In this document: positions 2,194 through 20,546 of the stretch, one piece after another
How positions within the stretch are numbered: the stretch's first letter is position 1
Layout: each line of letters begins with the position of its first letter
Assembly (NCBI GenBank): GCA_028710695.1
Contig: JAQTTP010000002.1
Location: 90,001-122,000 of the forward strand
Reading direction: 5' to 3'
Length of the DNA: 32,000 bases
Source: Candidatus Iainarchaeum sp.
GTDB taxonomy: Archaea; Iainarchaeota; Iainarchaeia; Iainarchaeales; 0-14-0-20-30-16
The notes under the pieces: generated by a model
What the model was told of the DNA's origin: nothing
Seen by the model: only the letters and a program-made list of their open reading frames with translations
Database searches by the model: none
Program-made: the position numbers and the translations under genes

Positions 2194-2259
2194 TGCTTAC
2201 CCCTTGTTATCTGTCCTGATATATATAAGGATATAGTTATTAAAATAGTTTTGGTTCTA

Positions 2260-2276
2260 GCCTTTTACGAAAAGGC
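2260..2276. repeat. Palindromic hairpin gccttttacgaaaaggc (7-bp stem), a member of the TTTT-(G)TA-AAAA hairpin family
   Basis: Lies 10 nt downstream (minus sense) of the ABC operon's last stop. ctagccttttac(g)aaaaggc is near-identical to 7105-7124 next to tRNA-Met. It may act as a terminator or processing hairpin. Confidence 0.35.
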
Positions 2277-2286
2277 AAAGACTAAG

Positions 2287-4124: not shown

Positions 4125-4125
4125 C

Positions 4126-5274
4126 TTAATTACCCCTCAAAGCTTCAACTGGATCCATTTTCGATGCAACTATTGCGGGATATATTCCACCCAAAATCCC
4201 CAAAACAAATGCAAACAAAAAACATTGTATTACTAATGAAAAAGTTACTGCAGTATTAATTGCAAAAAAATATTCAAACAAAGCACTTCCGACAATACCA
4301 ATAACTATTCCCAAGATGCCCCCAAATATACCAATTATTGCAGATTCGAAAACAACTGAATAAATTATATTTGCCTTACTCCAACCAACTGCTTTCAAAG
4401 TCCCAATTTCTTTTATTCTTTCCATTACTGACATCAGCATTGTATTTACAACACCCAACCCAGCAATTATTGCAGCAATAAGTGTAACAACAATAACTAA
4501 ATATCTTAAATAATCTAAAAAAGAGCCAACGGTTTTCATTCTTTCTTGTTGCCCAACTGCTTTCAATTCCTCATATTTGAATTCAATTTTTTCAGCAATT
4601 GCATCAGATTCAGAAGGATCTACAGTAATAACATTAAAAAGATTTGTTTTATCCATTGCAATTCCATAGCTTTCTCTTGCACCATCTAAAGAAATTAAAA
4701 TTTGTTTTTCAAGAGTGCTTGTTTCTGCTTTAAAAATGCCTTTTATCTTAAACTCCTTGCCATCCAAATCTATTTTTGAGCCAATAGATTTTTTATAATC
4801 TTCTGCAAGCACAGTAGATATCAACACATAATCTTTATCTGAGCTTTTCAACAGTTGCCCAGAAATTAAATTTTCTTTAACTGTATTGTAAATCAATTCG
4901 TCATAATTTTCTGGATCTAGACCAATAACAGAATAACTACTTTGCGGCCCAGTTGCAACTGTTTTTTTATTATCAATAGTTCCCACAATTTGCAAAATCT
5001 GCGGTATTGCAACTTTTACACCTTGGACACTTTCTAATTTCATTTTATAGGACATGCTCATTTCGCTTGCAAAAGGAGCTAAAGCATCCGCACTAAAAAC
5101 AGTAATTCCCTGCATTTTTCCCAAAGTTGCAAAAGATTCCTCATATAAGCCATCAACAACAGAAACAAGAATAATTAAAGAGGCAATTCCCACAATAATT
5201 CCAAGAAGAGCCAATGCAGTCCTCTTTTTTCTACGAAATATATTTAGAAATGCAACCTTAATTAAATTATACAT
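4126..5274 (-). CDS. ABC transporter permease, FtsX/MacB-type (paralogue 1)
   Basis: Same architecture and length as 2979-4124 (382 vs 381 aa). Shared blocks include NTMLMSVMERIKEIGTLKAVGW and GGIYPAIVASKMDPVEALR. The 3' ends are visibly similar at the DNA level, consistent with a tandem duplication. Confidence 0.85.
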   Translation of the reverse strand: MYNLIKVAFLNIFRRKKRTALALLGIIVGIASLIILVSVVDGLYEESFATLGKMQGITVFSADALAPFASEMSMSYKMKLESVQGVKVAIPQILQIVGTIDNKKTVATGPQSSYSVIGLDPENYDELIYNTVKENLISGQLLKSSDKDYVLISTVLAEDYKKSIGSKIDLDGKEFKIKGIFKAETSTLEKQILISLDGARESYGIAMDKTNLFNVITVDPSESDAIAEKIEFKYEELKAVGQQERMKTVGSFLDYLRYLVIVVTLIAAIIAGLGVVNTMLMSVMERIKEIGTLKAVGWSKANIIYSVVFESAIIGIFGGILGIVIGIVGSALFEYFFAINTAVTFSLVIQCFLFAFVLGILGGIYPAIVASKMDPVEALRGN

Positions 5275-5275
5275 T

Positions 5276-6487
5276 CTAATTACCTTTCAAAGACCGCAAC
5301 TCTTTCTTTTTTGTTTTATTTTTTTTGTAGAAATATATTCCAACTCCAATTCCAATTATTATAATAATATAAACCAACCAAGCAAAAGAAATATCTTTTT
5401 TCACAATAAATAATGGGACTTCTTTTGTAAAGGTATATTCCTTGTCATATTGATCTAAATAGGAAATTTCCACGTTTATTTTTTGGGTCCCTGTTTCAGC
5501 ATTACTTAAAACATGCAAGTCAAAAATCCCTGAACTAGAATCATCTTCTTCTAATGAACCAACATAGGCAATATCAATTCCTTCGACTACTTGATTTTCC
5601 AATATTTTCATAGATGCGGATTTTATTGTAGACTTAGAAATATTTTCCAATTGTATGGACAAAGAAAAGTAACCATCTTGTTTAAGTTTTGTTTCTCCAG
5701 TACTTAGAGATTTATCAATTGATGAAATTATTACAGTTGGCTTGTCTTCTACAATAAATGATACTGTCTCTACATCGCTTATTGATCCTACTGCGTTAGC
5801 ATTTAAATCAACATCAAATAATGCAGGAGTTGCATTTTTTGAAATTAAAAAAGTAAAAATTACATCTTTTGTTTGACCTGGATCTAAATCCCCCAAAAAC
5901 TTTGACTTTTCGTCAAGAGCAATTAATTTATTTGTTCCAAAATCTGCCTCAACTTTAATTCCTTTCAAGGTATTATTTCCTTCGTTTTTTACATATCCTT
6001 TTAGTTCAACCTTTTCATCAAGATATTTTTTATCCAAAGGATATTCAGTTAGAACCAAATTTATTTTATCATAGTTTGAAACATTAATTGTTGTTTGGGT
6101 GTTAATAGTATACTTTTCTAGGCCATCTCTAAGATATTCAATTTTTACTGGTATTGAATAATAGCCCCCCTTTACAGAATCCTTAACTTTAAACCTCAAT
6201 GCAAAGTTTCCAGTCTGACTAAACTTAATTACATCTAAATGATCAAGGCCAGTAATTATTTCAAAATCATTACTAGTGGGCACAAGACTTACATTTACAT
6301 CTTCTGCATCAACAGTGCTAGAAATGTTCTCTAATGTTATATTAATGCTAGCTTCACTATTCGGGTATATTGTTGTTGGATAAGAATTAGTGGAATCAAC
6401 CTCAAGAATATAGGCATAATTCGAAGTCGCAGAGAATCCAAAACTCGCCAAAAGCAATACAAAAAATAAAATCAAGAATTTTTTCAT
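5276..6487 (-). CDS. Secreted, C-terminally membrane-anchored repeat-domain surface protein (CARDB / COG1361 S-layer-domain-like), sequon-rich
   Basis: I place the start at the internal ATG 6487, giving a clean signal peptide (MKKFLILFFVLLLASFGFSA). About three Ig-like repeat modules are visible (INITLENISST..., VELKGYVKNEGNNTLKG..., LSIQLENISKS...). There are many N-x-S/T sequons. A C-terminal TM (WLVYIIIIIGIGVGIYFY) is followed by a basic tail. The stop lies 1 nt before the next gene's start. Confidence 0.55.
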   Translation of the reverse strand: MKKFLILFFVLLLASFGFSATSNYAYILEVDSTNSYPTTIYPNSEASINITLENISSTVDAEDVNVSLVPTSNDFEIITGLDHLDVIKFSQTGNFALRFKVKDSVKGGYYSIPVKIEYLRDGLEKYTINTQTTINVSNYDKINLVLTEYPLDKKYLDEKVELKGYVKNEGNNTLKGIKVEADFGTNKLIALDEKSKFLGDLDPGQTKDVIFTFLISKNATPALFDVDLNANAVGSISDVETVSFIVEDKPTVIISSIDKSLSTGETKLKQDGYFSLSIQLENISKSTIKSASMKILENQVVEGIDIAYVGSLEEDDSSSGIFDLHVLSNAETGTQKINVEISYLDQYDKEYTFTKEVPLFIVKKDISFAWLVYIIIIIGIGVGIYFYKKNKTKKKELRSLKGN

Positions 6488-6750
6488 TAATAAGCCCCCA
6501 ATTAATATTATATAAGTATAGTCAGGAGCCTTTATATATTTTGTTTTTATGTGCAGCACATAAGGCAATAATAACAATAGTCAGACAAAAAACAATAAAA
6601 AATTGCTTTGTGGCATTTATGCCACTGTTTTTCTTTTGGAAGACTGCAGCTTTTCCAAGAATCTTTTTTGCAAAGCAAAAAAATTCAGGGGCTAAAGCAG
6701 TTTGTGAAACAAACTGGCTTTTTCCTTTTCCAAAAAAGAAAAGCTTGGTA

Positions 6751-6822
6751 AGCAGGAGATGGGAGTTGAACCCACAATCGCCCGGTCTGCAGCCGGAAGC
6801 ATTACCATTCTGCTACTCCTGC
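6751..6822 (-). tRNA. tRNA-Cys (GCA), 72 nt, no encoded CCA
   Basis: Hand-folded cloverleaf. Acceptor GCAGGAG/CTCCTGC. D arm GCAG-AATGGTA-ATGC. Anticodon arm TCCGG-CTGCAGA-CCGGG. Variable loop CGATT. T arm GTGGG-TTCAACT-CCCAT. Discriminator U73, the known Cys identity element. Confidence 0.85.
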
Positions 6823-6849
6823 CCCGAGAACAAACTTTCCCGTTAGAGT

Positions 6850-6880
6850 TGTATGTTGAACCAAAGGTTCAAGCATACTT
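6850..6880. repeat. 31-nt perfect repeat, copy 1 (tgtatgttgaaccaaaggttcaagcatactt), itself an imperfect palindrome
   Basis: Identical to 7140-7170. It lies 28 nt upstream (minus sense) of the tRNA-Cys 5' end. Its internal stem is gtatg-ttgaacc / ggttcaagcatac with an AAA loop. Confidence 0.9.
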
Positions 6881-6881
6881 G

Positions 6882-6896
6882 CTTTTTTTTATAAGA
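6882..6896 (-). promoter_or_regulatory. TATA-like box for tRNA-Cys (minus sense CTTATAAAAAAAAGC)
   Basis: An A/T box abuts the 31-nt repeat on its upstream side. An analogous AAATAAAATT box abuts copy 2 at 7171-7180. No TSS data are available. Confidence 0.35.
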
Positions 6897-6937
6897 CTGC
6901 GACATTTATGTCGCCAGAGTTTTCTTTGGGAGGCTGT

Positions 6938-6961
6938 AGCTTTCTTTTACAAAAGAAAGCT
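6938..6961. repeat. Hairpin agctttcttttacaaaagaaagct (11-bp stem) in the tRNA-Met 3' trailer
   Basis: A perfect palindrome around TTTTAC/AAAA that starts 3 nt after the tRNA-Met discriminator. The tRNA-Cys trailer has a related AAGCTTTTCTTTT sequence at 6731-6748. Confidence 0.6.
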
Positions 6962-6964
6962 TAG

Positions 6965-7104
6965 TGCCAAGGGGGAGACTTGAACTCCCGTCCTCCAGAT
7001 TTCTCTCCGAAATCTGGTTAAATCATCGCTTGCAAAGCAAGCTCATAATTCATAACCACGAATAGTTATGAGTCTGGCGCTCCAACCAACTGAGCTACCT
7101 TGGC
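6965..7104 (-). tRNA. tRNA-Met elongator-type (CAT; could be tRNA-Ile2) with a 66-nt intron at 37/38
   Basis: Exons 7104-7067 and 7000-6965 join to a 74-nt cloverleaf. Acceptor GCCAAGG/CCTTGGC. D arm GCTC-AGTTGGTTG-GAGC. Anticodon arm CCAGA-CTCATAA-TCTGG. Variable loop AGGAC. T arm GGGAG-TTCAAGT-CTCCC. Discriminator A73. Confidence 0.8.
7001..7066 (-). other. tRNA intron (66 nt), highly structured
   Basis: RNA sense: ACTATTCGTGGTTATGAATTATGAGCTTGCTTTGCAAGCGATGATTTAACCAGATTTCGGAGAGAA. The boundaries carry a 1-nt A ambiguity. It lies between A37 and A38. Confidence 0.7.
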
Positions 7105-7106
7105 CC

Positions 7107-7126
7107 TAGCCTTTTACAAAAGGCTA
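7107..7126. repeat. Hairpin tagccttttacaaaaggcta (9-bp palindrome) in the tRNA-Met 5' leader
   Basis: Lies 3 nt upstream (minus sense) of the tRNA-Met 5' end. It is near-identical to the hairpin at 2257-2276. Confidence 0.6.
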
Positions 7127-7139
7127 AGTTTGCCAAAAG

Positions 7140-7170
7140 TGTATGTTGAACCAAAGGTTCAAGCATACTT
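7140..7170. repeat. 31-nt perfect repeat, copy 2
   Basis: Identical to 6850-6880, exactly 290 nt away. It lies 36 nt upstream (minus sense) of the tRNA-Met 5' end and is flanked upstream by AAATAAAATT. Confidence 0.9.
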
Positions 7171-7272
7171 AATTTTATTTAGCAAAACTGAGCCAGACTT
7201 GTAAAATTCTCATGTACAAGGATATATTCCTATCTTTAACCTTTTTTAGATAAGAAAGACTTATATTCTATT

Positions 7273-7938
7273 CTATTCCTCTAAGGCGTTATAATCATAA
7301 AGAAATTTGTTCATTCCATCCAAAATGTCTTGTTCATAAATTGTTTTTTCATTTATTACTATTCCGGGAATATAATTTACGTCATAAAACTCTAAAATAT
7401 TATCCACTGCACTAATTCCTACCTCAGAAGGAATACTAAAAATCCAAACCTTATCGCCATATTTGTCTTTAATATCTTGTATCGCTGTTTCTAAAGGAGC
7501 ACATTCATTACAGTTATAAGGATAAAAATACAAAATATAGTTTTTCACATACTGCGGACAAATAGAATTAAACTTCTTAAGCCTCAACCACAAATCTAAA
7601 TTATTGTACACATATTCTTTTTGTAATTTTTTTACTTCTTCTAAATTATCTTTGTCATCAGCAGCCAGATTAACTTTCTTTCCCAAATCATACAAAAAAT
7701 CTGACAACCCAATTAGCTGGTTCTCCATTAAATCACAAGAATTGGCATCAACCATAGTATCATAAAAATTCATAGTTATTTTTAGATCTGTACTTTTATT
7801 GTAAATATCCAAAATATCATCATTCAAATCTGTTTTTTTCCAATCATAAACAAGATTTGCAAAAAGCAATGCAAAAAACATTACAGCAAAGGTAAATGCC
7901 AGAGCTTTATAAAATATTTTTTTCTTTCCGTTGTCCAT
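7273..7938 (-). CDS. Membrane-anchored thioredoxin-fold protein with a CNEC active-site-like motif
   Basis: N-terminal TM (ALAFTFAVMFFALLFANLV). The C-terminal segment ILYFYPYNCNECAPLE...VWIFSIP...YIPGIVIN fits a Trx fold (CxxC plus a cis-Pro loop). I prefer ATG 7938 over the track's GTG 7947: AAGGTGGAG lies 6 nt upstream and overlaps the GT2 stop as TAATG. Confidence 0.55.
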   Translation of the reverse strand: MDNGKKKIFYKALAFTFAVMFFALLFANLVYDWKKTDLNDDILDIYNKSTDLKITMNFYDTMVDANSCDLMENQLIGLSDFLYDLGKKVNLAADDKDNLEEVKKLQKEYVYNNLDLWLRLKKFNSICPQYVKNYILYFYPYNCNECAPLETAIQDIKDKYGDKVWIFSIPSEVGISAVDNILEFYDVNYIPGIVINEKTIYEQDILDGMNKFLYDYNALEE

Positions 7939-9233
7939 TATCTCCACCTTGTTTTGTATTTAGTAAATTGCAAAAATATTGCGCTTGCCCAGAAGAAAAT
8001 CTGCGCAGGAGTATAGATTATTGGAGTTAATAATAATATAATAATATGTTTGAAAGTAATCTTCTCCTTACTCTCATAAAATCCAACAATATATGCTACA
8101 ATCCACAAGATAAATGCAATTATTATTATAAAAAATAAAGACGAAAGCACATACATCGGATTTACTTCAAAATACTTCTGTATCGCCACGAAAGGATTCG
8201 GGACTATTTTTAGATATATATACCAGTATATTTTTGTTATAAAAGTACTCAAAAAAGAGTAGAAGTTTGTTATTAAATAATAAATTATTACTGCCAACAT
8301 GCTGATTGTAACACTTACTATTGGTATCATAACTATTGAGAAAAATCCAAACTGTGGATCAAAAGCCATTTTTCTGTATTTTGCAAAGTTTATCAACGAG
8401 CCTCTGTTCCATCTTATTCTCTGCCAAAACAGTTTCTTCCAAGTTGGCATCACTTTTGTGGAAACTCTTGCAGATTTTGAACTAAAGATTTTATATCCCG
8501 CTTGTCTAATTCTAAAAGTAATCTCCATGTCTTCTGTAGGAGTTATGTCTTGGCTGTAGAACCCGCCAATCTTTTTCAACAAATTTTTTCTATATAGACT
8601 CAACGGCCCTTTAGTAACATATATTGATTCTAAGCCACCATAAGCAGTCAATAAAAAGTTAGAAAATATGTATTCAATATGTTGAAACCATTCCACAAGC
8701 TTTTGTGGATTTTTTACAACCATCTTTGTTGTTACTGCGCCAACTGTTTTATCATCAAAATAACCAGTTATATACTTCAGTGAATTTTTTTCAGGGAATG
8801 CATCGGCATCAACACAGCCGACTAGTTCATATTTTGCAATTTGAGTTGCCTCATTTAGACTTTCTGATTTTCCTCTTTGCCCTTTTTTCTTTACAACTCT
8901 TATGAAATTATATCTTTTTGCGAAGTTTGTTGCTAAAGAATAACTCTTATCTGTAGAGTTGTCATCTACTACAATAACTTCAAAATCACCTTTGTGATTA
9001 TTTTTCATTTCTACCAAAGATTTTAAAGTGTCCACAATTGTATTTTCTTCATTCCAAATTGGTACAACTATAGATACGCCATAATTCTTCTTAGACAGGG
9101 GGTCTTTTTTTGTTCTAAATTCAAAATATGCAAAGATATAGAGGATTACAAAGAAGAGCAAAATTCCAATGGAAAAAAGCAAAATATAATCCACGTACAT
9201 TGTAAAATCACTTATGACTATTAAAATAATCAA
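7938..9233 (-). CDS. Processive family-2 glycosyltransferase (PgaC/IcaA/NodC/cellulose-synthase-like membrane synthase)
   Basis: Motifs VVDDNSTD, VDADAF (DxD), PTEDME (TED) and QRIRWNRG (QxxRW). One N-terminal TM and about 4-5 C-terminal TMs. An alternative start at ATG 9200 (MYVDYILLF...) would remove the 26-nt overlap. Confidence 0.85.
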   Translation of the reverse strand: MIILIVISDFTMYVDYILLFSIGILLFFVILYIFAYFEFRTKKDPLSKKNYGVSIVVPIWNEENTIVDTLKSLVEMKNNHKGDFEVIVVDDNSTDKSYSLATNFAKRYNFIRVVKKKGQRGKSESLNEATQIAKYELVGCVDADAFPEKNSLKYITGYFDDKTVGAVTTKMVVKNPQKLVEWFQHIEYIFSNFLLTAYGGLESIYVTKGPLSLYRKNLLKKIGGFYSQDITPTEDMEITFRIRQAGYKIFSSKSARVSTKVMPTWKKLFWQRIRWNRGSLINFAKYRKMAFDPQFGFFSIVMIPIVSVTISMLAVIIYYLITNFYSFLSTFITKIYWYIYLKIVPNPFVAIQKYFEVNPMYVLSSLFFIIIIAFILWIVAYIVGFYESKEKITFKHIIILLLTPIIYTPAQIFFWASAIFLQFTKYKTRWR

Positions 9234-10881
9234 GATACTTATTAAAAAGGAGGTATTTCTCCGAACTATAATTCACATCTGCCCCGTTGTCAAAAACAAC
9301 ATAAGGACTCGAAATAGAGGAAACCACTGCAAAATTATTATTTTTATCAATATAGCTTACTAACCCGGTTGATGTAGAACCAATAGAGAATATGATATCA
9401 TTGTTTTTTTCAAAATTATATCCTTGGGCCACATAAGACAATAACAGATCTTTAAAGTTCAAATGTGATAACAAATCATAATTTTCTTCTTGTTCTAAAT
9501 CGCTTGCAACAAAAATCAGAGGAACATTATAAGAAGAATGATTTTTTTCATTAAAATATCCTTTTTCTCCATGATCTGAAACTATTACAATTAAAGTTTC
9601 ATCAGACTTTCCAATTTCTTTGAGATAATTATAGAAATCATCAAAATAATAATTATAGTATTCTGTTCTACTTTGGTCTTTTAATGCAATATATTTCAAG
9701 GTATGGCCATAAATTAATTCTTGGTAAACAAATTGCTTTTCATTATTATTTGCAAGTTCTTTTAATTGGCCAAATACTGCACGATCTTCGCAAGCTTTTT
9801 CGAACTCTATCAAATGCATACAGATAAGATCTTCATCTGCACCATAATCCTCTTCTTTAAGAGTGATTATGTTTTTAAAATTATATTTAGTTATTTCGAA
9901 TGGCGCACCAACATCGGAAATCAAAAAAGTTGTGTTGTAGTTGTTATCATTGAAATAATCCACAAGATTCTGTTTTTTTATTACTTTTTCAGCATACAAA
10001 GAATACCAATCACTATAAGAATATGATTCATATGGGATCAAAGTAGAAGATAGCATTGTTAACATCGCAGTTCTACTATCCTGGTTGTTTGTATAATAAT
10101 TTTTATAAACTATTGAATTCTCTTTATTTTTTTCAAAAAAGTTTTTCTCCACTGGCACTTTTTTAATATCTTTATAGAACATATAATTAGGTATTTCTTC
10201 CATTACAAAAACAAATATCTTTTTGTATTTCATTTGGGGATCAAAGTTAAAATTAAGATCTTGTGAAAAACTTTTGTCAAATAAATTGAAATCATAATTA
10301 ATATCAATATTCAAGTCCACAAGTTCTTTTCTATCTTCAAAAAGATATCTTATTGTATCAACATAAGGGTTTGCAAAATAATTTCCGAATATGACAGGAT
10401 AAACTATTACGAGCCCAAGAACAACAAAAAAACATATTTTTATTGCTTTCCTTGAAATTATTAATTTGTCCAGCTTTATCAAATAAGCAACTACAAAAAT
10501 CGCCACAAAGATCAGCAAACACAATAAGATTAGTTTATAATTAATTATCTGCTTTGCTACAAAAATCGCAGTATCTAATTTCACAGAAAAAAATGAATAT
10601 GCTTTATTTGATAAATCATTTGCAAAATAAGCATACATGAAACACTGAAGAGTATTATAAAAATACAAAATGTAGAATATTGGCGAGGTCAGTTTTCTAG
10701 AAATCTTTAATGATGCAAACAAAAATAAAAAGAAAATAAAGGCATATACCAACACGTCAAAAACATAAGAAGAAATTATCAAAGAAACATTGCTTGTAGA
10801 AAATATTTTTACGAACAGCAAACAAACTAAAGTCAGAATAATGAGTTTAAGTTTATAGTTATAGAAGTTTAATTTACTCAT
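9208..10881 (-). CDS. Polytopic membrane protein with an extracytoplasmic sulfatase/alkaline-phosphatase-fold domain (LtaS/EptA/BcsG/OpgB-like), paralogue B
   Basis: About 5-6 N-terminal TMs, then IFVFVMEEIP, YYTNNQDSRTAMLTMLSS and LIVIVSDHGEKG (E, Ser/Thr and DH ligand pattern of the family). A TATA-like gatatatataac sits in the 50-nt gap upstream. Confidence 0.7.
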   Translation of the reverse strand: MSKLNFYNYKLKLIILTLVCLLFVKIFSTSNVSLIISSYVFDVLVYAFIFFLFLFASLKISRKLTSPIFYILYFYNTLQCFMYAYFANDLSNKAYSFFSVKLDTAIFVAKQIINYKLILLCLLIFVAIFVVAYLIKLDKLIISRKAIKICFFVVLGLVIVYPVIFGNYFANPYVDTIRYLFEDRKELVDLNIDINYDFNLFDKSFSQDLNFNFDPQMKYKKIFVFVMEEIPNYMFYKDIKKVPVEKNFFEKNKENSIVYKNYYTNNQDSRTAMLTMLSSTLIPYESYSYSDWYSLYAEKVIKKQNLVDYFNDNNYNTTFLISDVGAPFEITKYNFKNIITLKEEDYGADEDLICMHLIEFEKACEDRAVFGQLKELANNNEKQFVYQELIYGHTLKYIALKDQSRTEYYNYYFDDFYNYLKEIGKSDETLIVIVSDHGEKGYFNEKNHSSYNVPLIFVASDLEQEENYDLLSHLNFKDLLLSYVAQGYNFEKNNDIIFSIGSTSTGLVSYIDKNNNFAVVSSISSPYVVFDNGADVNYSSEKYLLFNKYLDYFNSHK

Positions 10882-10931
10882 AATTTATAATTAAAATACA
10901 AAAGTTATATATATCTATCAAGAAATCAGAA

Positions 10932-12608
10932 TTACTTATCGTTAAATTCTGTTTTACTTGTTTGGTAGCAAACCAACTGTTCTTGGAGATAATTATTATC
11001 TTTTGTTGTAGAACTTAAAATATTATACTCCCCAACATCTTTTTCTTCAAAAATGCCATTCTCAAAAGCAGTTTTGAACCCAAATGTTTTGCTTGCAGTA
11101 GGCCCAACAAAAAACAATTGTTCTTCAGGATAGTAGTCTAGCCCATATAGGTAGCTAAACAAAACAGTCTTGAAATCCAAATGCGATAATAAATTGTTGT
11201 CTTCGCGATAGGTTAAATCATTTGCAACAAAAATCAATGGAATATTATATCCTGCAGTTTTGGAATAATCTACTTTTTCTCTAAGTCCGTGGTCAGAAAC
11301 TATTGCAATAAGCAAATCTTTATCCAGGCCCTCTGCTTTTATTTTTTTGTAAAACTCTGCAAGATATTTTGAATAATATTCTGTTTTTGACAGCCCGCTT
11401 TCTTTAATATACAAATTACTGTGCCCGTAAATAAATTCTTGCATAATAAAGACTTTTTCTTTTTTCAAATCTTCCAAAAGCCTATCTAATAACACGATAT
11501 CCTCACATCCAATATCATATGGATATGGATTAAAACACATGAATTCTTTTGTCAGGGAATCATAGTTCTCTTTTATATCATTTATTTTTGACCATTTGTA
11601 CTTAGCAAGCTCACAAGGGGCCGCAGTATTAGAGACATAAAAACTAGTATAATAGTTTTCGTCATTAAAATGATCCACCAAATTATACTCTTCCATCATT
11701 GGATGGCCACACAAACTATACTCTTCAGAATAAGTATATGCTTCCGTTGGAATAAATTGAGATGATAATATAGTTACCATTGAAGGAACACTATCTTGGT
11801 TGTTTGTATAATAATTAAAATAATAATTTGAATTACCTTTTGTTATTCCAAAAAAATTCTGATCTTCTGAGACTTTAGAGATATCTTTGTAGAATTCGCC
11901 ATAAACCAGACTTTCCATGACAAAAACCACAATTTTTTTGTATTTGGACTCTTGTATAAGAGCAGGATAATTGTTTTGTTTTAAAAAAGATAGATTTGTA
12001 TCACAATTAAAATCTGTCAAGGTAATTGTTTCTTTTGTTTCGGCCAGGGCATATATTGTATTCACATAAAAATTATCAACATTAGAGACAAATATTATTG
12101 GGGTGCCGACTAATAAAAGTAAGGCCAAGAAAAGCAGAGGCAATACTGCTTTTTTTGGAAGATGAATTTTTATAAAATTAGATAACAAATAAGAAATTAC
12201 AACAGCAAGTACAAGACAAATTATAAAAAAGATCAGATAATGCCAGGGGAATAAAAATGTAAATGAAAACGAAGCATTTCCAGAATCAATTGACAAAAAA
12301 GACAACCCACGCCCAAACATATCATCCATAAAATACGAGGTAAGATATGCAGTAACTGTATGGAACAGATACAAAAAAATAAATACAATTTTACTAAGAA
12401 TAGTTGAAAGCTTATCAATCCCAATATAAATAAAGAAAAGAAGGGCATATATTCCAGAATCAAAAAGCCAAGTTGCCAAAATGTACATTGGCCTTGAACT
12501 ACAAGTTAGTTTCACAGCAAGCAAGCAAATTATTGAAATAAGAATCACAAAGAAAAATACTTTCTTCCAACTCCATTTCAAAAAAAATGACATAAAATCA
12601 CACCACAC
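10932..12608 (-). CDS. Polytopic membrane protein with an extracytoplasmic sulfatase/alkaline-phosphatase-fold domain (LtaS/EptA/BcsG/OpgB-like), paralogue A
   Basis: Collinear with 9208-10881: IVVFVMESLV, YYTNNQDSVPSMVTILSS, LIAIVSDHGLRE, NIPLIFVANDL, LLSHLDFK. The start may be the internal ATG at 12593 (MSFFLKW...). Confidence 0.7.
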   Translation of the reverse strand: MWCDFMSFFLKWSWKKVFFFVILISIICLLAVKLTCSSRPMYILATWLFDSGIYALLFFIYIGIDKLSTILSKIVFIFLYLFHTVTAYLTSYFMDDMFGRGLSFLSIDSGNASFSFTFLFPWHYLIFFIICLVLAVVISYLLSNFIKIHLPKKAVLPLLFLALLLLVGTPIIFVSNVDNFYVNTIYALAETKETITLTDFNCDTNLSFLKQNNYPALIQESKYKKIVVFVMESLVYGEFYKDISKVSEDQNFFGITKGNSNYYFNYYTNNQDSVPSMVTILSSQFIPTEAYTYSEEYSLCGHPMMEEYNLVDHFNDENYYTSFYVSNTAAPCELAKYKWSKINDIKENYDSLTKEFMCFNPYPYDIGCEDIVLLDRLLEDLKKEKVFIMQEFIYGHSNLYIKESGLSKTEYYSKYLAEFYKKIKAEGLDKDLLIAIVSDHGLREKVDYSKTAGYNIPLIFVANDLTYREDNNLLSHLDFKTVLFSYLYGLDYYPEEQLFFVGPTASKTFGFKTAFENGIFEEKDVGEYNILSSTTKDNNYLQEQLVCYQTSKTEFNDK

Positions 12609-12677
12609 ATTTTATGTTCCTGTTTGATATTTTTGCAATTTTTTCTGAGCATAAATTCAAACTTGACATAAGACCAC

Positions 12678-13562
12678 TCAAACTAGTAAAAATATAATAT
12701 ATGCTAAGGGACAAATAATTATAAAATAGATTATAAATTTCTTCCAACTACCATCAATTAAAGCAACAAAAACACTTGTAATTAAAGATAGCACACCAAT
12801 GTAAACATATATTGCTAATTTTGCAGTTTCCAATAGCACCGCATCAAAAGAAAATACATCTATTGTTGTATCAAAAGAGAAATTGGATACTATGTTCAAC
12901 ACCCATTTCAGCACAAGAGGCACAATTACTGCCGACGATATTAGCAAGGTGTATTTCTGTATTGTAAGCCCAACTTGCTTTTCTTTCTCAACAATTTCAG
13001 TTTCGATCAGATTTTTTGACAATTTTGTAAATAGTTCCGAGACCTCAATTCCCGATTCATAAGATATTTTCAAGTAATTTATTATCTGCCTTAACTTTAC
13101 ATTTTTATTTCTCTTAACAATGTTATCTAAAGCATCTTGAACTGCCGTTCCTTTTGTTATCTGAGAATGGCAGATTTTGAATTCATAAGACAAAACATTA
13201 TTTGAAATTGAATTATCCGAAAAATATTTTATTATTTCTATGATATCTGTTCCTTTTGGAAACAAAGAGGCTTGTATTAAAAGATCTGAAAGCCCAAGAG
13301 TTATTTTTTTCTGTTTATAATCTTCAAGATAGATGAAAAACAAATAAAAGAACAAAAAAGAAAATAAGGCCACAAAAATTATAAGACAAAGTAAAAGAAG
13401 TAAAGAAATTGTGCCAATAATATAAAAAAACAACAAAACACTAAATAAAAAAACAAATAATGTAAAGGAGTATTTTATATAGTCCGAGAGATCCAGAGAA
13501 TTTTTGCTTAGAATAAATTCAAAATCAGATTTTAGCTTTGAAAAATTGAAGTTTATTTGCAT
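12678..13562 (-). CDS. TFF platform protein with a single T2SSF-like domain (TadC-like)
   Basis: N-terminal TM pair, a ~130-aa soluble helical domain (LSDLLIQASLFPKGTD...ITKGTAVQDALDNIV...YESGIEVSELFTKLSKNL), then C-terminal TMs. SD AAGGAGGG lies 7 nt upstream. The start overlaps the upstream stop as TAATG. Confidence 0.6.
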   Translation of the reverse strand: MQINFNFSKLKSDFEFILSKNSLDLSDYIKYSFTLFVFLFSVLLFFYIIGTISLLLLLCLIIFVALFSFLFFYLFFIYLEDYKQKKITLGLSDLLIQASLFPKGTDIIEIIKYFSDNSISNNVLSYEFKICHSQITKGTAVQDALDNIVKRNKNVKLRQIINYLKISYESGIEVSELFTKLSKNLIETEIVEKEKQVGLTIQKYTLLISSAVIVPLVLKWVLNIVSNFSFDTTIDVFSFDAVLLETAKLAIYVYIGVLSLITSVFVALIDGSWKKFIIYFIIICPLAYIIFLLV

Positions 13563-14335
13563 TATCTGCCCTCCTTAAGATGATAAGGCATTTGATAAAC
13601 TACAAAAGAGATATAGACAATATCAATTAAAGGAAATACAGCAAAGAATAGGATCATTAGCTGAGTCGGAGTAATATTAACTTGAATTATAGTAGATCCC
13701 ACTGTAACAAACATTAGATATAAAGAAGGAAGAATTGCTGTGGCTGCAATAAAAAACAAGGAATACATTACTAATTTACTTGAATACCCTTTTGCTTCAA
13801 GTTTTTGTTTATTTAGTAATTCTTGCGCCAAAGTAGTCAAAATATTATCTTTATACCCAGATTCATAAAGCACCATTATTTGTGATAAAGACCTTTTTAG
13901 AGGGACTGAATTTATTCGTTCAGCAATTTTAAAGAAAGAATCTTGCAAATTACTGCCTTTTAAATAATTAAACAACAACTTTTCAAAAACAATATTTATT
14001 GTTTTGTATTTTCGTGAATTTACTTTTATTGAATCCAGAAAATCAGAGTTCAAAAATAAACTTATATCCAAATCCATTAAAAAATAAGGCAAATCTTTTT
14101 CTAGGTTCCCAATAAAATGTTTTTTCAGCAAGTAAGGCAGCACTAAGCAAAAGGCATAGATACATAAACTAAAGAACGCAGAATAAACAAGAGCATACAC
14201 TGAAAAAAAAGGAAATAAAAACGCAAGGAACACAAAATATCCAATTATTAATGATTTAAACATCAACTTTCTATATTCTTTTTCGCCCTTGTTAAAAAAC
14301 AAACTTACATAAAACAATTCTTTCATTTCATTCAC
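13562..14335 (-). CDS. TFF platform protein with a single T2SSF-like domain (TadB-like)
   Basis: TM pair, then LPYFLMDLDISL...LKGSNLQDSFFKIAERI...LYESGYKD...LAQELL, then C-terminal TMs. Start is GTG 14335 or ATG 14326, abutting the ATPase stop. Confidence 0.6.
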   Translation of the reverse strand: MNEMKELFYVSLFFNKGEKEYRKLMFKSLIIGYFVFLAFLFPFFSVYALVYSAFFSLCIYAFCLVLPYLLKKHFIGNLEKDLPYFLMDLDISLFLNSDFLDSIKVNSRKYKTINIVFEKLLFNYLKGSNLQDSFFKIAERINSVPLKRSLSQIMVLYESGYKDNILTTLAQELLNKQKLEAKGYSSKLVMYSLFFIAATAILPSLYLMFVTVGSTIIQVNITPTQLMILFFAVFPLIDIVYISFVVYQMPYHLKEGR

Positions 14336-15896
14336 TTAAAATATATGAATTAAACATTTTACTAAACTCGTCTATCTTTAGTTCTTTATCAGCAAGTAAA
14401 AACTCAAGATAATCCCTTAATTCTTTTGCTAGCACAGAATATTTCTTTCCAAACACAAGTTCTATTTTTTCTTTAACTTTTTTGCTTTCATTTACTTGCT
14501 CAAATTCATTTTTCAAAGCATTATATTTAAACAAGATATTTACTTTTGAATTTTCAACTTCTGCAATTTCAAACAACTTTCTTCGTTCTATTTTCTTCCC
14601 GTCTTTTATAGAGGTCCACCTTTTTTGTAGAATAATTAAATCCAATGCATTCAAATCCTGCTCAGTTAGCCCCAAATTCTTAAGCCTAGATATCGTTTCG
14701 TTCACGCTAAGCCCATGAAATGTGGCATAGCTTCCCTTTCCCTGGCCCGCAAGAATAGTATCTAAATAGGCATCAACTTCTTCTTTAGTCCTTATTTCCC
14801 CAACAATCACTCTATCGGGCCGCATTCTTAAAGTTGTTTTTATTAAATCTGTCATATTTATTTTCTGTTCCGCATTAACTTTCAAGCAAACTCTATGGTT
14901 ATGGGGGATGTTTATTTCAGGGGTTTCTTCAGTAATAATTATTCGCTCATCTAAAGGAACAAAAGAAAATAATGAGTTCAGAAGGGTGGTTTTTCCACTC
15001 CCTGTATTTCCTGCAATAAGAACATTAATTTCTGACTGCATGGCCAAGGCAAGAAAAATTGCGAGGTCTAAAGAAATCGTGTTATTTTTTATAAGATCCA
15101 AGGGAGTCAGAGGGTTAAATCTAAATTTTCTTATGGTAATTGAAATTCCAGAATTAACAACCGGCTTAATAATTGCATTAAGCCTTGATCCATCTTTTAA
15201 ACTTGCATTTAAAATTGGGCTAGACAAAGTAATCCTTCTACCAATGTTTCTAGACATTTTATTAACTAGCTCTCGCAAATAGTTTTCATTAGTGAAATAT
15301 AAATTTGAGTCATGCCAGCCTTTGTTGATTACATATACACAGATTTTTTTGTCTTTGCCATAACCATTTATTGCTATTTCCTCAATATCTTTACTATCTA
15401 ATAAATAAGACAAGGGCCCAAAAGAAAATAATTCTTTTCTTATTATTTCCAACAAATATTTTTGCTGGTCATTTTCAAGAATTATATTCTTTAAATTACA
15501 AAACTCCACAAATTGTGTTTCCAACTCTGCTTCTAAGTTCTCCGAAGGGATATCTTCTATACTTTTCAAAAACACAGACATAAGATATTTTTCTGCATCT
15601 GATAGCTTTTTTATTTTTAGAATACAGGATCCGTCAAGATAAAAATTATCAAACTCAGCAGTATCTTTAGATCCCGCCTTTTCAAGTTCCCAGCCCAAAT
15701 CTACTGCAGAATATTCTAAAAGTTCTTTTTCTTCTTGTATTTCAGGGAACTTAAAAGAATTATATTTTTGTAAAACTTTTCGCTTTAAGTTTTTGAAAAT
15801 TAGTTTTGTTTTCTTTATCTTACTTTTTTTTGCCTTTATAATTTCCATTAAAAATAAAAAAGGAAAAAGAGAATCACTTACTTTGTGATAACTCAT
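14328..15896 (-). CDS. Type II/IV secretion-family ATPase (FlaI/TadA/CpaF-like, T2SSE domain)
   Basis: Walker A GNTGSGKTTLLNS, Asp/Glu box IIITEETPEI, Walker B-like RMRPDRVIVGEIR, His box SYATFHG. An alternative start lies at ATG 15848. Confidence 0.9.
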   Translation of the reverse strand: MSYHKVSDSLFPFLFLMEIIKAKKSKIKKTKLIFKNLKRKVLQKYNSFKFPEIQEEKELLEYSAVDLGWELEKAGSKDTAEFDNFYLDGSCILKIKKLSDAEKYLMSVFLKSIEDIPSENLEAELETQFVEFCNLKNIILENDQQKYLLEIIRKELFSFGPLSYLLDSKDIEEIAINGYGKDKKICVYVINKGWHDSNLYFTNENYLRELVNKMSRNIGRRITLSSPILNASLKDGSRLNAIIKPVVNSGISITIRKFRFNPLTPLDLIKNNTISLDLAIFLALAMQSEINVLIAGNTGSGKTTLLNSLFSFVPLDERIIITEETPEINIPHNHRVCLKVNAEQKINMTDLIKTTLRMRPDRVIVGEIRTKEEVDAYLDTILAGQGKGSYATFHGLSVNETISRLKNLGLTEQDLNALDLIILQKRWTSIKDGKKIERRKLFEIAEVENSKVNILFKYNALKNEFEQVNESKKVKEKIELVFGKKYSVLAKELRDYLEFLLADKELKIDEFSKMFNSYILSE

Positions 15897-17577
15897 AATC
15901 CACTACTTTCTTGAATGCACTATAATCTACATATCCGCCAACTATTGCGTTGCCAACAATAAATGCTGGAGTCCCATTTAACCCCAAATTGGATGCGAAA
16001 TCAGCAATATTTGTCAATTCTAAGTTGTATGTAGTTCCATTGTAACAAGTGTCAAATTTAGTTAAATCTAATCCTACTTGTTGTGCAACATCCTTTACAA
16101 CATTAGCATCATACCCTTCTTCAGTAGTAATAAATATTTTTTCATGGTATTGCCAATACTTGCCTTGCTCCGCAGCACACATTGCTGCCAAAGATGCTAA
16201 ATGAGCTGTTGGGTGTAAATCAGCAATTGGGTGTTGTAGGTAGTAAAAGTTTACCTTTCCAGCATCAATATATTCGTTCTTAAGTTTTCCATAATTGTTT
16301 TTGTTGAATTCTCTACACCAAGGACATTGATAATCTGAAAATTCAATTATTGTTACTTTTGCATCTTTACTTCCTATTGAGTAGTCTTGTGACAAATTCT
16401 TTGCAAAGTCTGCCAAGTCAACTAAATAGTAGTAACCTTGAATTCCAACTGCTGCCATTGTCTGAGTCTTATATAGGCCCAATACGTTGTTATCTGTGTC
16501 TATATAAGGAGCAATATTTTCATAAAATGGACTTTCAGTAATTTGTCCTTCAAATACATATGCAGGAAGCATTTCTATGCCCAAGTCTGAAATAAGTTTT
16601 TTTCCAGCAACACTATCTGCATCAACTATTTCGTCAGTAATTGAATAGTAATAATCAAACACTTCAAAAGGATTTACATTTTGTTGCTCAAAATAGTCCA
16701 AACCAACTTTACCAATTATTTTTACAGTCATTGCTGGCTTTATTGGCTTTCCTAAATTTACATTCTGAACAACTGAATCTATAATGTCTAAAGCAAACTT
16801 CTCGCCGTCATAAACAAACATAGGGTCTAAGCTCATGAAACCATTCAAAGCAATTGTTTGGAACTGTGAGTCAACCATGTTTTTCTTGTCTTCTGATTTA
16901 TAACAAGCATCAAACTTTGTTTTGTCTAAGCCTAATTGAGTAACATAAGAGTTTATTTTTTCGTCAGTATAAATTCCAGGAAGCTGTTGTAGATAGTAGT
17001 ATTTACTAGAATAATATCCAACTGATGTTGCCCCATTGTGATCTTTGTTTGCATTTGTTAATAATAAATCGATCATTTCTTTTTCTTTTCCTTGATCTTT
17101 AGCACATAATTCTGCTATTTTTGCATTCTTTCCTTCTTTAAAATCAAATCCGCCCAAACTCTTTGAGCTTTCTATTCCACCATATAGTTCAAACTTTATA
17201 TCCACACCAGGATATTTTGCAACTAATGACTTATAATTCAAATCATAAAATGCTGCTGTGCTTGGAGACAGATAATCCCCATATAAAGTAAATATTACCT
17301 TATCTGAAACTATTTCTGTATTATTATCATCAGTTGGTTTTACTTCTTTATTTCCAAAAGCAAAAGCCAAACCAATTACTACAATTATTACTATTATTAA
17401 TCCAAGTATAAAGTATTGATTTGTAAAAATTTGTTTTAATTTGCTGCAATCACAGCTTTTACAACATTTTTTTGGTTCTTCAACAGTTTCTGCTGTTTTT
17501 GTATCTATTTTTTTTACGGGTTTTTCAGTCTTTTTTTCCACTTTCTTTACAACTTTACTTTTCTTCTTAACTACCAT
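15874..17577 (-). CDS. Membrane-anchored tandem DsbA/BdbD-like thiol:disulfide oxidoreductase (domain 1 degenerate, domain 2 CPWC)
   Basis: Lys-rich N-terminus, a CCKSCDCS cluster, then a TM (YFILGLIIVIIVVIGLAFAF). Domain 1 has YGDYLSPST where CxxC is expected. Domain 2 has FSDYQCPWCREF ... NGTPAFIVGN (cis-Pro loop). SD AAGGTGAT lies 3 nt upstream of the ATG. Confidence 0.7.
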   Translation of the reverse strand: MVVKKKSKVVKKVEKKTEKPVKKIDTKTAETVEEPKKCCKSCDCSKLKQIFTNQYFILGLIIVIIVVIGLAFAFGNKEVKPTDDNNTEIVSDKVIFTLYGDYLSPSTAAFYDLNYKSLVAKYPGVDIKFELYGGIESSKSLGGFDFKEGKNAKIAELCAKDQGKEKEMIDLLLTNANKDHNGATSVGYYSSKYYYLQQLPGIYTDEKINSYVTQLGLDKTKFDACYKSEDKKNMVDSQFQTIALNGFMSLDPMFVYDGEKFALDIIDSVVQNVNLGKPIKPAMTVKIIGKVGLDYFEQQNVNPFEVFDYYYSITDEIVDADSVAGKKLISDLGIEMLPAYVFEGQITESPFYENIAPYIDTDNNVLGLYKTQTMAAVGIQGYYYLVDLADFAKNLSQDYSIGSKDAKVTIIEFSDYQCPWCREFNKNNYGKLKNEYIDAGKVNFYYLQHPIADLHPTAHLASLAAMCAAEQGKYWQYHEKIFITTEEGYDANVVKDVAQQVGLDLTKFDTCYNGTTYNLELTNIADFASNLGLNGTPAFIVGNAIVGGYVDYSAFKKVVDYELSQSK

Positions 17578-17710
17578 AGAATCACCTTAGAATTAGTGTA
17601 TTTTATATAATAAAGAATAAATAATATAAAGTATTTGGTAAAAATGCAATGGGAAACCAGGCGTAAAATATATAAACCCACGCAAGTAGGTTTAAAAACC
17701 CGCCGAAATG

Positions 17711-17721
17711 TTTATATATAA
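17711..17721 (+). promoter_or_regulatory. TATA-like box (tttatatataa) in the divergent DsbA-like/TFB intergenic region
   Basis: The only strong TATA-like element upstream of tfb. It would give a ~40-nt leader carrying AGGAGTG (17774-17780). No TSS data are available. Confidence 0.35.
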
Positions 17722-17786
17722 CTTTCAATCCAAAGATATATGATTACTAATTATTTGTAATTCTAAAATCCTTAGGAGTGGTATTA

Positions 17787-18752
17787 ATGGTGGCTACCTG
17801 CCCGTCATGTAATTCAAAAAATATTAAAAAAGACAAAGACAAAGGAGAAGTTATTTGCTACGATTGTGGTAATGTTTTCGAGGACAACATAAATTTAGCA
17901 AAAGAATGGAGAACTTTCGATTCTAGCGAATACAACAAAAAAGCAAGATCAGGAAGCCCAATGCAGTATTCTAAACTAAATAAAGGTATTTCCACCATGA
18001 TTGAAATGGGTGGAAGAGATGCAAGAGGAAACAAGCTATCAAGCGACACAAAAGCACAGATGTACAGAATAGCAAGATGGCACAAGAGAACAACTGTTTC
18101 AAACTCCTTGCAGAGAAACCTTTCTATTGCTTTAACAGAGCTTAGGAGAATAGCGTCATACTTAAACATCCCTGAGCCACTAATAGAAAAAGCGGCTTTG
18201 CTTTACAGAAAGACTGTAGACAAGGAACTAATTAGAGGAAGATTGATTGAGTCCGTTGTTGCTGCTGTTCTTTATGCTGTTTGTAGAGAATCAAATGTTC
18301 CAAGAACTCTAAACGAAATGGCTGAAGCTTCAGGAATAAGCAAAAAGGATATTGGAAGAACATACAGGTTCTTAACTAAAGAGCTTGAATTAAATGTTCC
18401 TTTAACAAACCCAATATACTATATTCCAAGGTTCACTTCAGAACTTGGTTTAAGCGGAGAAGTCCAAGAAGAAGCAAGAAAGACTTTACAGAAAGCAATA
18501 GACCAAGGATTAATTTCTGGAAGAGGCCCAACTGGTGTAGCTGCTGCTGCAGTTTACATCGCTGCTTTGATTAAGGGAGAAAGAAGAACCCAGAAGCAAG
18601 TAGCAAATGTTGCAGGGGTAACAGAAGTTACAATTAGGAACAGATATAGAGAACTTAAAGAAAGATTGGGCTTAGAAGTCGAAGATGACTTCATAAACGT
18701 AGGCGGCCCAGATACAGAAATAGTAACTGATGAAAGCAAAAAGAAGCTATAA
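17787..18752 (+). CDS. tfb: Transcription initiation factor IIB (TFB)
   Basis: N-terminal Zn ribbon CPSCNS...CYDCG, followed by two cyclin-fold repeats (ALTELRRIASYLNIP..., YIPRFTSELGLSGEV...) and a C-terminal HTH (QKQVANVAGVTEVTIRNRYREL). I prefer ATG 17787 (SD AGGAGTG 6 nt upstream) over the track's GTG 17778. Confidence 0.95.
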   Translation: MVATCPSCNSKNIKKDKDKGEVICYDCGNVFEDNINLAKEWRTFDSSEYNKKARSGSPMQYSKLNKGISTMIEMGGRDARGNKLSSDTKAQMYRIARWHKRTTVSNSLQRNLSIALTELRRIASYLNIPEPLIEKAALLYRKTVDKELIRGRLIESVVAAVLYAVCRESNVPRTLNEMAEASGISKKDIGRTYRFLTKELELNVPLTNPIYYIPRFTSELGLSGEVQEEARKTLQKAIDQGLISGRGPTGVAAAAVYIAALIKGERRTQKQVANVAGVTEVTIRNRYRELKERLGLEVEDDFINVGGPDTEIVTDESKKKL

Positions 18753-20545: not shown

Positions 20546-20546
20546 G

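Follow-up and report, generated by a model that had tools for sequence, protein, structure and literature searches.

Independently inherited surface modules as the probable basis of an eight-gene array in an Iainarchaeota genome

A 32,000-nucleotide stretch of the genome of Candidatus Iainarchaeum sp. (assembly GCA_028710695.1, contig JAQTTP010000002.1, positions 90,001 to 122,000; hereafter the window) carries an array of eight genes at 7273-17577. A previous reading, made from the letters alone (the sequence-only reading), had proposed that the array specifies one surface structure. Probably, however, it consists of juxtaposed, independently inherited surface modules, with a pilus-motor module lying beside a variable surface-glycan module, and is not one machine. 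The array falls into four parts: a lineage-specific gene for a DsbA-like protein; a trio resembling the core of the Tad and Epd pilus systems, composed of a type IV filament (TFF) ATPase and the platform proteins F1 and F2; a variable slot; and a pair of genes encoding a family 2 glycosyltransferase (GT2) and a thioredoxin-fold protein (TrxL), which is usually preceded by one gene for a sulfatase-fold protein (Sulf). From its upstream end, the array contains the following features (aa, amino acids; nt, nucleotides).

15874..17577, minus strand: membrane-anchored DsbA-like protein of 567 aa (Thioredoxin_4/DSBA, CPWC)
14328..15896, minus strand: TadA/CpaF/FlaI-type filament ATPase (Pfam T2SSE, E 6.7e-38)
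13562..14335, minus strand: F1, single-domain TadB/TadC-like platform protein, assigned by homology to F2
12678..13562, minus strand: F2, single-domain TadB/TadC-like platform protein (Pfam T2SSF, 30.8 bits; cut-off 25.2)
12609..12677, minus strand: gap between the trio and SulfB; breakpoint at which both the SulfB indel and the island swap described below have their left junction
10932..12608, minus strand: SulfB, polytopic LtaS/PbgA-like putative transferase of the alkaline-phosphatase superfamily (Pfam Sulfatase, 32.2 bits)
10882..10931, minus strand: gap before SulfA; a TATA-like box, TTGATAGATATATATAACTTTTGTA, precedes the SulfA ATG by about 30 nt
9208..10881, minus strand: SulfA, LtaS-like extracytoplasmic domain joined to a polytopic membrane domain (Pfam Sulfatase, 45.6 bits)
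7938..9233, minus strand: membrane-integrated, cellulose-synthase-like GT2 of about 420 aa (Glyco_tranf_2_3, E 3e-28; QRIRW)
7273..7947, minus strand: TrxL, single-pass membrane protein containing a helical bundle and, at its C-terminus, a thioredoxin fold (CNEC; AlphaFold2 model and Foldseek)

Conservation of the array and of its parts

The ATPase-F1-F2 trio is kept in essentially all of the 84 related loci (loci are designated here by L and a number) where the contig allows it to be seen. Eighty of these, from metagenomes, form a distant set whose ATPases are 38-54% identical to that of the window. When neighbours are detected by single-sequence phmmer (E<=1e-3), a search that very divergent GT2 or DsbA proteins could escape, a DsbA gene is found upstream of the trio in none of the 45 distant loci with at least 2 kb of upstream DNA, and Sulf or a related GT2 is found downstream in none of the 35 with at least 2 kb of downstream DNA. 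In L032 (54% identity), the trio is found by itself, surrounded by genes for tRNA synthetase and DNA repair. The DsbA gene adjoins the ATPase gene solely in the clade of the window, that is, in L029, L030/L031, and L033, where the ATPase is at least 70% identical (90% in L033, 88% in L029, 70% in L030/L031). The order common to these syntenic relatives is a second TFF locus, NUDIX, TFIIB, DsbA, ATPase, F1, and F2.

Beyond F2, the relatives diverge. In L033, SulfA follows F2 directly, and DNA alignment shows that the difference in SulfB is a clean indel of this one gene, starting at the stop codon of F2; L033:7000-7130 and window 12594-12680 are identical up to that stop (TTTGAGT) and divergent beyond it. 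In L030, F2 is followed by a five-gene island (13162-18106) encoding an APH/choline-kinase-like kinase, GtrA (GtrA_DPMS_TM), a GT2 of 310 aa (Glycos_transf_2), a methyltransferase, and a PMT_2 GT-C enzyme. Next come orthologues of the window GT2 (672 bits), of TrxL (327 bits), and of a CARDB-like protein; therefore both SulfB and SulfA have been replaced. The gap between the PMT_2 gene and the GT2-TrxL pair is 14 nt. The intergenic gaps at 12609-12677 and 10882-10931 coincide with the breakpoints and thus form the borders of the variable slot. Its contents would be extracytoplasmic decorating enzymes that use lipid-linked donors: two LtaS-like transferases in the window, one in the 90%-identical strain, and the GtrA/GT2/PMT_2 set with a kinase and a methyltransferase in the 70%-identical relative.

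The other end of the array has a distribution of its own. A search of all six-frame open reading frames (ORFs) of 27 Sulf loci with the window proteins finds the order Sulf, GT2, TrxL in L002, L003, L004, L005, and L018, the TrxL of L003 being diverged; three further lookups add L113/L114, L117, and L118, so that the order is present in at least nine other Iainarchaeota loci. No TFF ATPase of the window type, T2SSF protein, or DsbA is encoded within 8-10 kb of Sulf in L002, L003, L004, L005, or L018. The cassette lies beside genes for ribosomal protein L21e, RIO1, and TopoVI in L113/L114 and L117, and beside phospholipase C and phosphatase genes in L118, again with no TFF or DsbA gene. In a Pfam census of 90 ORFs, a processive-type GT2 is the sole recurrent neighbour family, present at 6 of 11 archaeal Sulf loci; the other neighbours are housekeeping genes, and neither T2SSF nor DSBA is enriched at these 11 loci. 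Because Sulf-GT2-TrxL recurs as a three-gene cassette, the association of a GT2 with an LtaS-like and a redox-fold protein is real. This much of the packaging of activities put forward by the sequence-only reading stands; for the inclusion of the TFF motor and of DsbA, the comparison of genomes gives no support.

These distributions make it very improbable that all eight genes form one integrated system, whose parts cooperate to build one decorated attachment filament or exopolymer. Such a system would account for the tight packing and co-direction of the genes, for the order kept within the clade (L033, L030), and for a second, independent adjacency of Sulf and a trio in L115; in addition, the near-invariant Cys pairs of the Sulf ectodomain and of TrxL could be DsbA substrates. 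Against it stand the absence of DsbA (0/45) and of Sulf or GT2 (0/35) from distant trio loci, the existence of at least eight cassette loci without TFF and DsbA genes, and the replacement of the Sulf genes in L030 and their variability in L033. Furthermore, the minus-strand run extends well past the array into an unrelated ABC transporter. Because the minus strand holds all of the genes from 1099 to 17577, including that transporter and tRNA-Cys, the co-direction of the array is uninformative. A lack of conservation of the neighbourhood in related genomes had been named beforehand as refuting the proposal of a single surface structure, and for the array as a whole this is what is seen.

Several observations, together with the limit on the neighbour search given above, weigh against a mere juxtaposition of modules. 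The order DsbA-trio-...-GT2-TrxL is kept in three related genomes (window, L033, and L030). Members of the Sulf family without an adjacent GT2 occur in L008-L011, L115, and L116. In L115 (6474-11730), the Sulf member P0012 is convergent to a T2SSF-T2SSF-T2SSE trio whose ATPase is fused to a 4Fe-4S ferredoxin, and there is no GT2; in L007, GT2..Sulf adjoins a gene homologous to that for the window's second type of TFF ATPase. Two extra Sulf/TFF adjacencies among about 16 archaeal loci exceed a naive random expectation. They were rejected as proof of coupling, there being no proper null model, and cell-envelope genes often cluster. Given L115, there is still room for a weak functional linkage of Sulf and TFF genes. 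Finally, no obvious terminator is seen when the gaps at 12609-12677 and 10882-10931 are read by eye, and with such tight packing and co-direction a single transcript for all eight genes is possible.

The L115 and L007 adjacencies also keep open, at low probability, the reading that the slot is a pilin-modification island whose enzymes (LtaS/EptA-like here, the PMT_2 GT-C enzyme in L030) modify the pilins of the adjacent Tad-like machine. Neisseria PptA places phosphoethanolamine or phosphocholine on PilE, and Pseudomonas TfpW and TfpO glycosylate pilins. As this reading would have it, the slot comes right after F2 in three related genomes and is filled by one or the other of two classes of ectoenzyme that depend on lipid donors, and the Sulf member of L115 lies beside a trio without a GT2. 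In most genomes, however, Sulf lies next to GT2-TrxL or is coupled to it in translation, and TFF genes are distant; in L030, the PMT_2 gene abuts GT2-TrxL and not the trio; no pilin gene is nearby; and none of the 35 other trio loci has Sulf. Pilin modification is thus improbable. It bears, though, on the earlier statement that no described system is known to combine these activities: although neither the eight-gene array nor the Sulf-GT2-TrxL cassette was found described in the searched literature, pilin phospho-form transferases such as Neisseria PptA, in which a TFF is combined with an enzyme of the LtaS/EptA type, had been overlooked.

The pilus core, the DsbA-like protein, and the layout of the locus

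The trio has what is expected of a type IV filament machine, namely a T2SSE ATPase with a P-loop and polytopic T2SSF platform proteins. The ATPase has 4955 homologues at E<=1e-20, whose names in the source are CpaF and TadA, and its P-loop (GNTGSGKTT) is invariant in 19 orthologues. Among NCBIfam models, it scores 193 bits with FlaI (cut-off 550) and 173 bits with the TadA family, both under the equivalog cut-offs. Equivalog status as FlaI or TadA was accordingly rejected, as was that of the GT2 as PgaC, since the scores lie far under the curated cut-offs. F2 is identified by Pfam. F1 has no Pfam match above threshold (T2SSF, E 0.032); however, a profile of 47 F1 orthologues aligns with one of 41 F2 orthologues in hhalign with a probability of 99.3% (E 2e-20), and in related loci F1 always comes after the ATPase. 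Many close relatives of the ATPase (e.g., P0070-P0079 and P0090-P0091) are annotated with 4Fe-4S ferredoxin-type domains (PF12838, PF00037), a fusion that is unusual for a TFF ATPase and is missing from that of the window.

The pilus-motor module would then be a Tad/Epd-like assembly core, made up of a TadA/CpaF-type ATPase and two TadB/TadC-like proteins, whose pilins and prepilin peptidase are encoded elsewhere. There is no ORF space for pilin or prepilin peptidase genes within 7273-17577, in agreement with the sequence-only reading. A heuristic scan for pilins with class III signal peptides beside the 84 trio loci was too noisy, and yielded a convincing pilin in L072 only.

In this genus-level lineage alone, a DsbA-like oxidase precedes the core. 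Residues 397-560 of the protein match Pfam Thioredoxin_4 (E 1.6e-30) and DSBA (E 2.4e-18), and this catalytic C-terminal domain has both a CxxC motif (CPWC) and a cis-Pro loop (GTPAF). The N-terminal half is a degenerate copy that has SPST in the place of CxxC and that matches the C-terminal half by BLASTP at E 1e-4. No DsbB or VKOR was recognised among the window ORFs scanned, although neither was the object of a dedicated test. The DsbA-like oxidase probably acts on any exported protein that contains Cys, with no dedicated client.

Most of the gene-level description in the sequence-only reading holds. The eight consecutive ORFs of the minus strand lie in the order, and exactly at the positions, that it gave; Pfam search supports the T2SSE, Glyco_tranf_2_3, and Thioredoxin_4/DSBA calls and both Sulfatase calls; the two single-domain T2SSF proteins are borne out by Pfam for F2 and by the alignment to F2 for F1; and the thioredoxin fold of the CNEC protein TrxL, which falls under the Pfam cut-off, is borne out by its structural model and Foldseek. 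The protein described as a tandem DsbA has one catalytic domain, that with CPWC, and one degenerate copy. The longest ORFs do give junction overlaps of 23, 8, 1, 26, and 1 nt, as reported. However, two of these hinge on the start codon, because gene callers pick shorter forms of the GT2 and the ATPase on identical or related contigs: the GT2 starts at ATG 9200, so that a 7-nt gap replaces the overlap, and the ATPase is called at about 503-509 aa, which puts about 22 nt between it and DsbA. Translation of the ATPase probably begins some 15 codons after the first ATG, and for SulfB, ATG 12593 is the more likely start.

The only gaps of more than 40 nt are indeed those at 12609-12677 (69 nt) and 10882-10931 (50 nt), and the TATA-like box noted earlier in the second is present and kept in L033. 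Promoter and terminator features were read by eye here because a sigma-70 scanner is unsuited to an archaeal host. The window is AT-rich, with a GC content of about 31%. DNA alignment indicates that TTGATAGATATATATAACTTTTGTA is nearly identical in L033 despite the missing SulfB. The element is thus a candidate promoter for a SulfA-GT2-TrxL transcription unit, judging from its sequence and position.

An archaeal TFIIB is encoded just beyond the array, at 17778-18752. SulfA and TrxL are identical to proteins recorded at NCBI for a metagenome-assembled genome of 'Candidatus ainarchaeum sp.', in keeping with a host among the Iainarchaeota/Diapherotrites of the DPANN archaea. Further along lies the second type IV filament locus of the window (20114-25089, minus strand), which is syntenic in L029 and L030. 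It encodes a T2SSE ATPase of 765 aa with a long N-terminal extension, a polytopic protein of 752 aa with no T2SSF Pfam match, and a protein of 146 aa with a pilin-like N-terminus (..RNKKGQEDFIFKLLVGAVIGAVILGIILVLI); in L042, the same pair directly follows an ATPase-F1-F2 trio. On the other side of the array, tRNA-Cys (6750-6823) separates TrxL from a region (2287-6577, minus strand) encoding a CARDB/Rib-like surface protein of 433 aa, which is syntenic downstream of TrxL in L030, and then a pair of FtsX-type permeases with a MacB-like ABC ATPase. An exact-sequence lookup of SulfA returned only a 5-kb contig that duplicates the window, with no further gene context.

Proteins and proposed pathway of the glycan module

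SulfA and SulfB both exceed the Pfam cut-off for Sulfatase (PF00884, 25 bits), and no NCBIfam or LtaS-specific model matched either protein. A PDB search with the sequence profile of the Sulf family gave just local matches of a D-H motif to sulfatases, so a fold search was needed. The AlphaFold2 model of SulfA (predicted local distance difference test score, pLDDT, 88) comprises helices at 9-168 and an alpha/beta domain at 221-555, and its best Foldseek matches are 3lxq, PbgA/YejM, LtaP/LtaS, and MCR-1 (E 1e-13 to 1e-9). Residues E228, D268, S269, H393, D436, and H437 are invariant among 27 members of the family, with S269 being the first residue of a helix (269-278) in the model. C354 and C364 are nearly invariant in the same set, including genomes without an adjacent DsbA. 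When matched to LtaS by position rather than by superposition, these residues are consistent with a metal-dependent transferase that is active, uses Ser as its nucleophile, and has a disulfide in its ectodomain. SulfA is thus predicted, from sequence and model, to be a lipid-headgroup (phospho-alcohol) transferase. SulfB is 38% identical to SulfA; the two are old paralogues, each with its own orthologues (for SulfB, P0022 at 60%, P0004 at 51%, L006 at 44%, and P0015 at 42% identity).

The Sulf family is small, with 52 clusters in 5.8 billion proteins. The 27 loci found by a genome scan belong to Iainarchaeota, other DPANN archaea, and several bacterial phyla; Polyangiales, Calditrichota, and Bacteroidota are among the bacteria with members of the family. 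In L017 (6242-9865) and L023 (6591-9950), from Polyangiales and Myxococcota, the Sulf homologues adjoin ORFs of more than 1100 aa that match the window GT2 and encode chitin-synthase-like GT2s; therefore the pairing of Sulf with a synthase exists in bacteria too. A Pfam census around bacterial and distant homologues found no dominant partner; Chitin_synth_2, polysaccharide deacetylase, and GH18 each turned up beside two members. Since the chitin-synthase-like GT2 is present in L017 and L023 only, the link of Sulf to a GT2 is not universal for the family. In L116 (6332-9701), two tandem Sulf paralogues (547 and 566 aa) lie by an enolase gene and an HD-domain gene, with no GT2 or TFF gene.

The core of the glycan module would be a membrane-embedded, cellulose-synthase-like GT2 with a single-pass, thioredoxin-fold partner. 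The best NCBIfam match of the GT2 is PgaC_IcaA (TIGR03937; E 6.6e-39), in which residues 32-383 align with positions 22-382 of the model at 134 bits, well short of the equivalog cut-off of 422.3. All 11 orthologues keep D131, D133, E223, D224, and Q260-R-x-R-W264 without change. Their profile gives long alignments with BcsA, hyaluronan synthase, chitin synthase, ceramide glucosyltransferase, and PcManGT, which reach part of the transmembrane region in the case of BcsA, hyaluronan synthase, chitin synthase, and ceramide glucosyltransferase. None of the eight array proteins has a Pfam match to PilZ or BcsB. One finding weighs against a polymerising enzyme: the best single-sequence PDB match is PcManGT (6yv7), a mannosyltransferase implicated in N-glycan biosynthesis, and because of this, processivity of the GT2 is not established.

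TrxL falls under the cut-off of the Pfam Thioredoxin model (20.4 bits, E 5e-4; cut-off 23.5). Its AlphaFold2 model, of moderate confidence (pLDDT 76), contains one transmembrane helix, a helical bundle, and a C-terminal domain, for which the best 50 Foldseek matches listed are all thioredoxins or protein disulfide isomerase domains (TM-score to target 0.5-0.6). Orthologues follow the GT2 in L002, L003, L004, L005, L018, L030, L113, L117, and L118. The CxxC motif is present in seven close orthologues, and FSVEKA or FNIEKA stands in its place in L003, L004, L005, and L018. In contrast, C68, C127, and the cis-Pro P191 are invariant across the orthologues, including those in genomes without an adjacent DsbA; the two Cys, like C354 and C364 of SulfA, fall in a part predicted to be extracytoplasmic. 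Because CxxC is confined to the close clade and these three residues are found everywhere, the conserved role of TrxL, as judged from its sequence, is more likely structural or accessory than catalytic.

Together, the proteins suggest a pathway in three steps. The GT2 would polymerise and translocate a beta-glycan, its nearest relatives being synthases of poly-N-acetylglucosamine (PNAG), chitin, and cellulose. The Ser-nucleophile, metal-dependent LtaS-like enzyme would then move a headgroup of the phosphoglycerol or phosphoethanolamine type from a membrane lipid onto the emerging product. TrxL would be an accessory subunit, perhaps in a physical complex with the others, and would be redox-active only in the clade that keeps CxxC.

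A serious alternative, although on present evidence an unlikely one, keeps the same modules but has the cassette make a lipid-anchored polymer or glycolipid. In this case, the GT2 would glycosylate a membrane lipid, in the manner of ceramide or diacylglycerol glucosyltransferases, and the LtaS-like enzymes would add or polymerise glycerol-phosphate from (archaetidyl)glycerol, with SulfB and SulfA acting as primase and synthase, like Listeria LtaP and LtaS; the product would resemble lipoteichoic acid (LTA) in an archaeal form. Its weight comes from the Sulf structure, which is nearer to LtaS and LtaP, from the tandem paralogues, and from the phospholipase genes on the flanks of some cassettes. 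In the fold search, SulfA is matched best by LtaP/LtaS, PbgA, and 3lxq, and not by BcsG; the GT2 also matches Glyco_transf_21 and ceramide glucosyltransferase structures; two old Sulf paralogues are in tandem in both the window and L116; and in L118, L003, L005, and L018, the cassette is followed by a gene for Zn-dependent phospholipase C, with a patatin-like lipase near. However, most cassettes have a single Sulf, and the tandem pair of L116 has no GT2. In addition, QRxRW is retained in the GT2, whose alignment with BcsA, hyaluronan synthase, and chitin synthase takes in their channel-forming regions, and the invariant nucleophile is Ser, as in BcsG, and not the Thr of LtaS. As a setting, L118 (6168-11880), like L003, L005, and L018, places the cassette before genes for the Zn-dependent phospholipase C, a low-molecular-weight phosphatase, and the patatin-like lipase, which together form a lipid-processing context.

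The reading of the array as separately inherited modules has a bolder extension, which is speculative and rather doubtful. The cassette could be an undescribed synthase-dependent pathway of DPANN archaea or Iainarchaeota that yields a beta-glycan decorated with phospho-headgroups, or an LTA-like polymer, from membrane-lipid donors that are possibly host-derived. It would have been recruited beside the Tad-like core and DsbA as an attachment island in which decoration enzymes exchanged between strains (LtaS-like versus Gtr/PMT_2) give surface variation, and L115 would then reflect real coupling.

DPANN archaea need contact with host cells, so that much of their biology turns on surface structures, most of which are uncharacterised. 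The apparent eight-gene system reduces to two testable pieces, an ordinary Tad/Epd-like pilus core and a compact, conserved three-gene cassette. Were the product a glycan decorated with lipid headgroups, or an LTA-like polymer, the cassette would be an archaeal counterpart of phosphoethanolamine-cellulose or lipoteichoic acid, and would plausibly help to determine how cells attach to hosts and vary their surface.

Comparison with known systems

The trio is most like the core of the Tad/Flp system (TadA/CpaF, TadB, and TadC) and of the archaeal Epd pili (EpdL and EpdJ/EpdK), in which, as in the window, a T2SSE ATPase gene is followed by two single-domain T2SSF genes. Unlike those systems, the window locus has no pilin, prepilin peptidase, or accessory genes, and in this lineage only, a DsbA-like gene precedes that of the ATPase. 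Type IV pilus loci with TadB/TadC have already been noted in DPANN archaea (PMC6393860).

For the cassette, the closest described logic is that of BcsA with BcsG. BcsG associates with BcsA and transfers phosphoethanolamine from lipid to nascent cellulose (PMC11379886, PMC11470070). The likeness to the type II Bcs systems of E. coli and Salmonella is that a membrane GT2 (D, DxD, ED, and QxxRW) lies next to a polytopic enzyme of the alkaline-phosphatase superfamily with a Ser nucleophile; Sulf directly precedes the GT2 in this way in the window and in L002, L003, L004, L005, L018, L113, L117, and L118. The differences are several. A PilZ/cyclic di-GMP module is absent, as are BcsB, BcsC, BcsE, and BcsF; a single-pass, thioredoxin-fold protein serves as partner instead; Sulf is structurally nearer to LtaS and PbgA than to BcsG; the GT2, at about 420 aa, is the size of PgaC or NodC; and the host is an archaeon.

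LtaS, including the LtaP primase and LtaS synthase of Listeria, and PbgA/YejM share with Sulf a polytopic N-terminal domain, an extracytoplasmic sulfatase fold, and tandem paralogues, and the residues corresponding to the metal ligands and nucleophile of LtaS are conserved in Sulf. However, the sequence identity is only about 12%, Sulf has Ser in place of the Thr nucleophile, and most Sulf relatives are single-copy. The poly-beta-1,6-GlcNAc synthase PgaC/IcaA, with its small membrane partner PgaD/IcaD, resembles the GT2 in its near-full-length NCBIfam match, in its similar size and transmembrane layout, and in having the gene for a small membrane protein directly downstream. In contrast to that system, TrxL has a thioredoxin fold and is unrelated to PgaD/IcaD, and there is no PgaB-like deacetylase. 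The GtrABC systems (GtrA flippase, GtrB-like GT2, and GT-C transferase) enter the comparison through L030, where such a set, which is not in the window, fills the exact slot of the two Sulf genes; both GtrABC and Sulf are ectoenzyme systems that depend on lipid donors. The array can thus be regarded as an archaeal version of the known logic of a synthase plus a decorating enzyme, set in a strain-variable slot by an ordinary Tad-like pilus core, and so as a modest extension of that logic rather than a new kind of machine.

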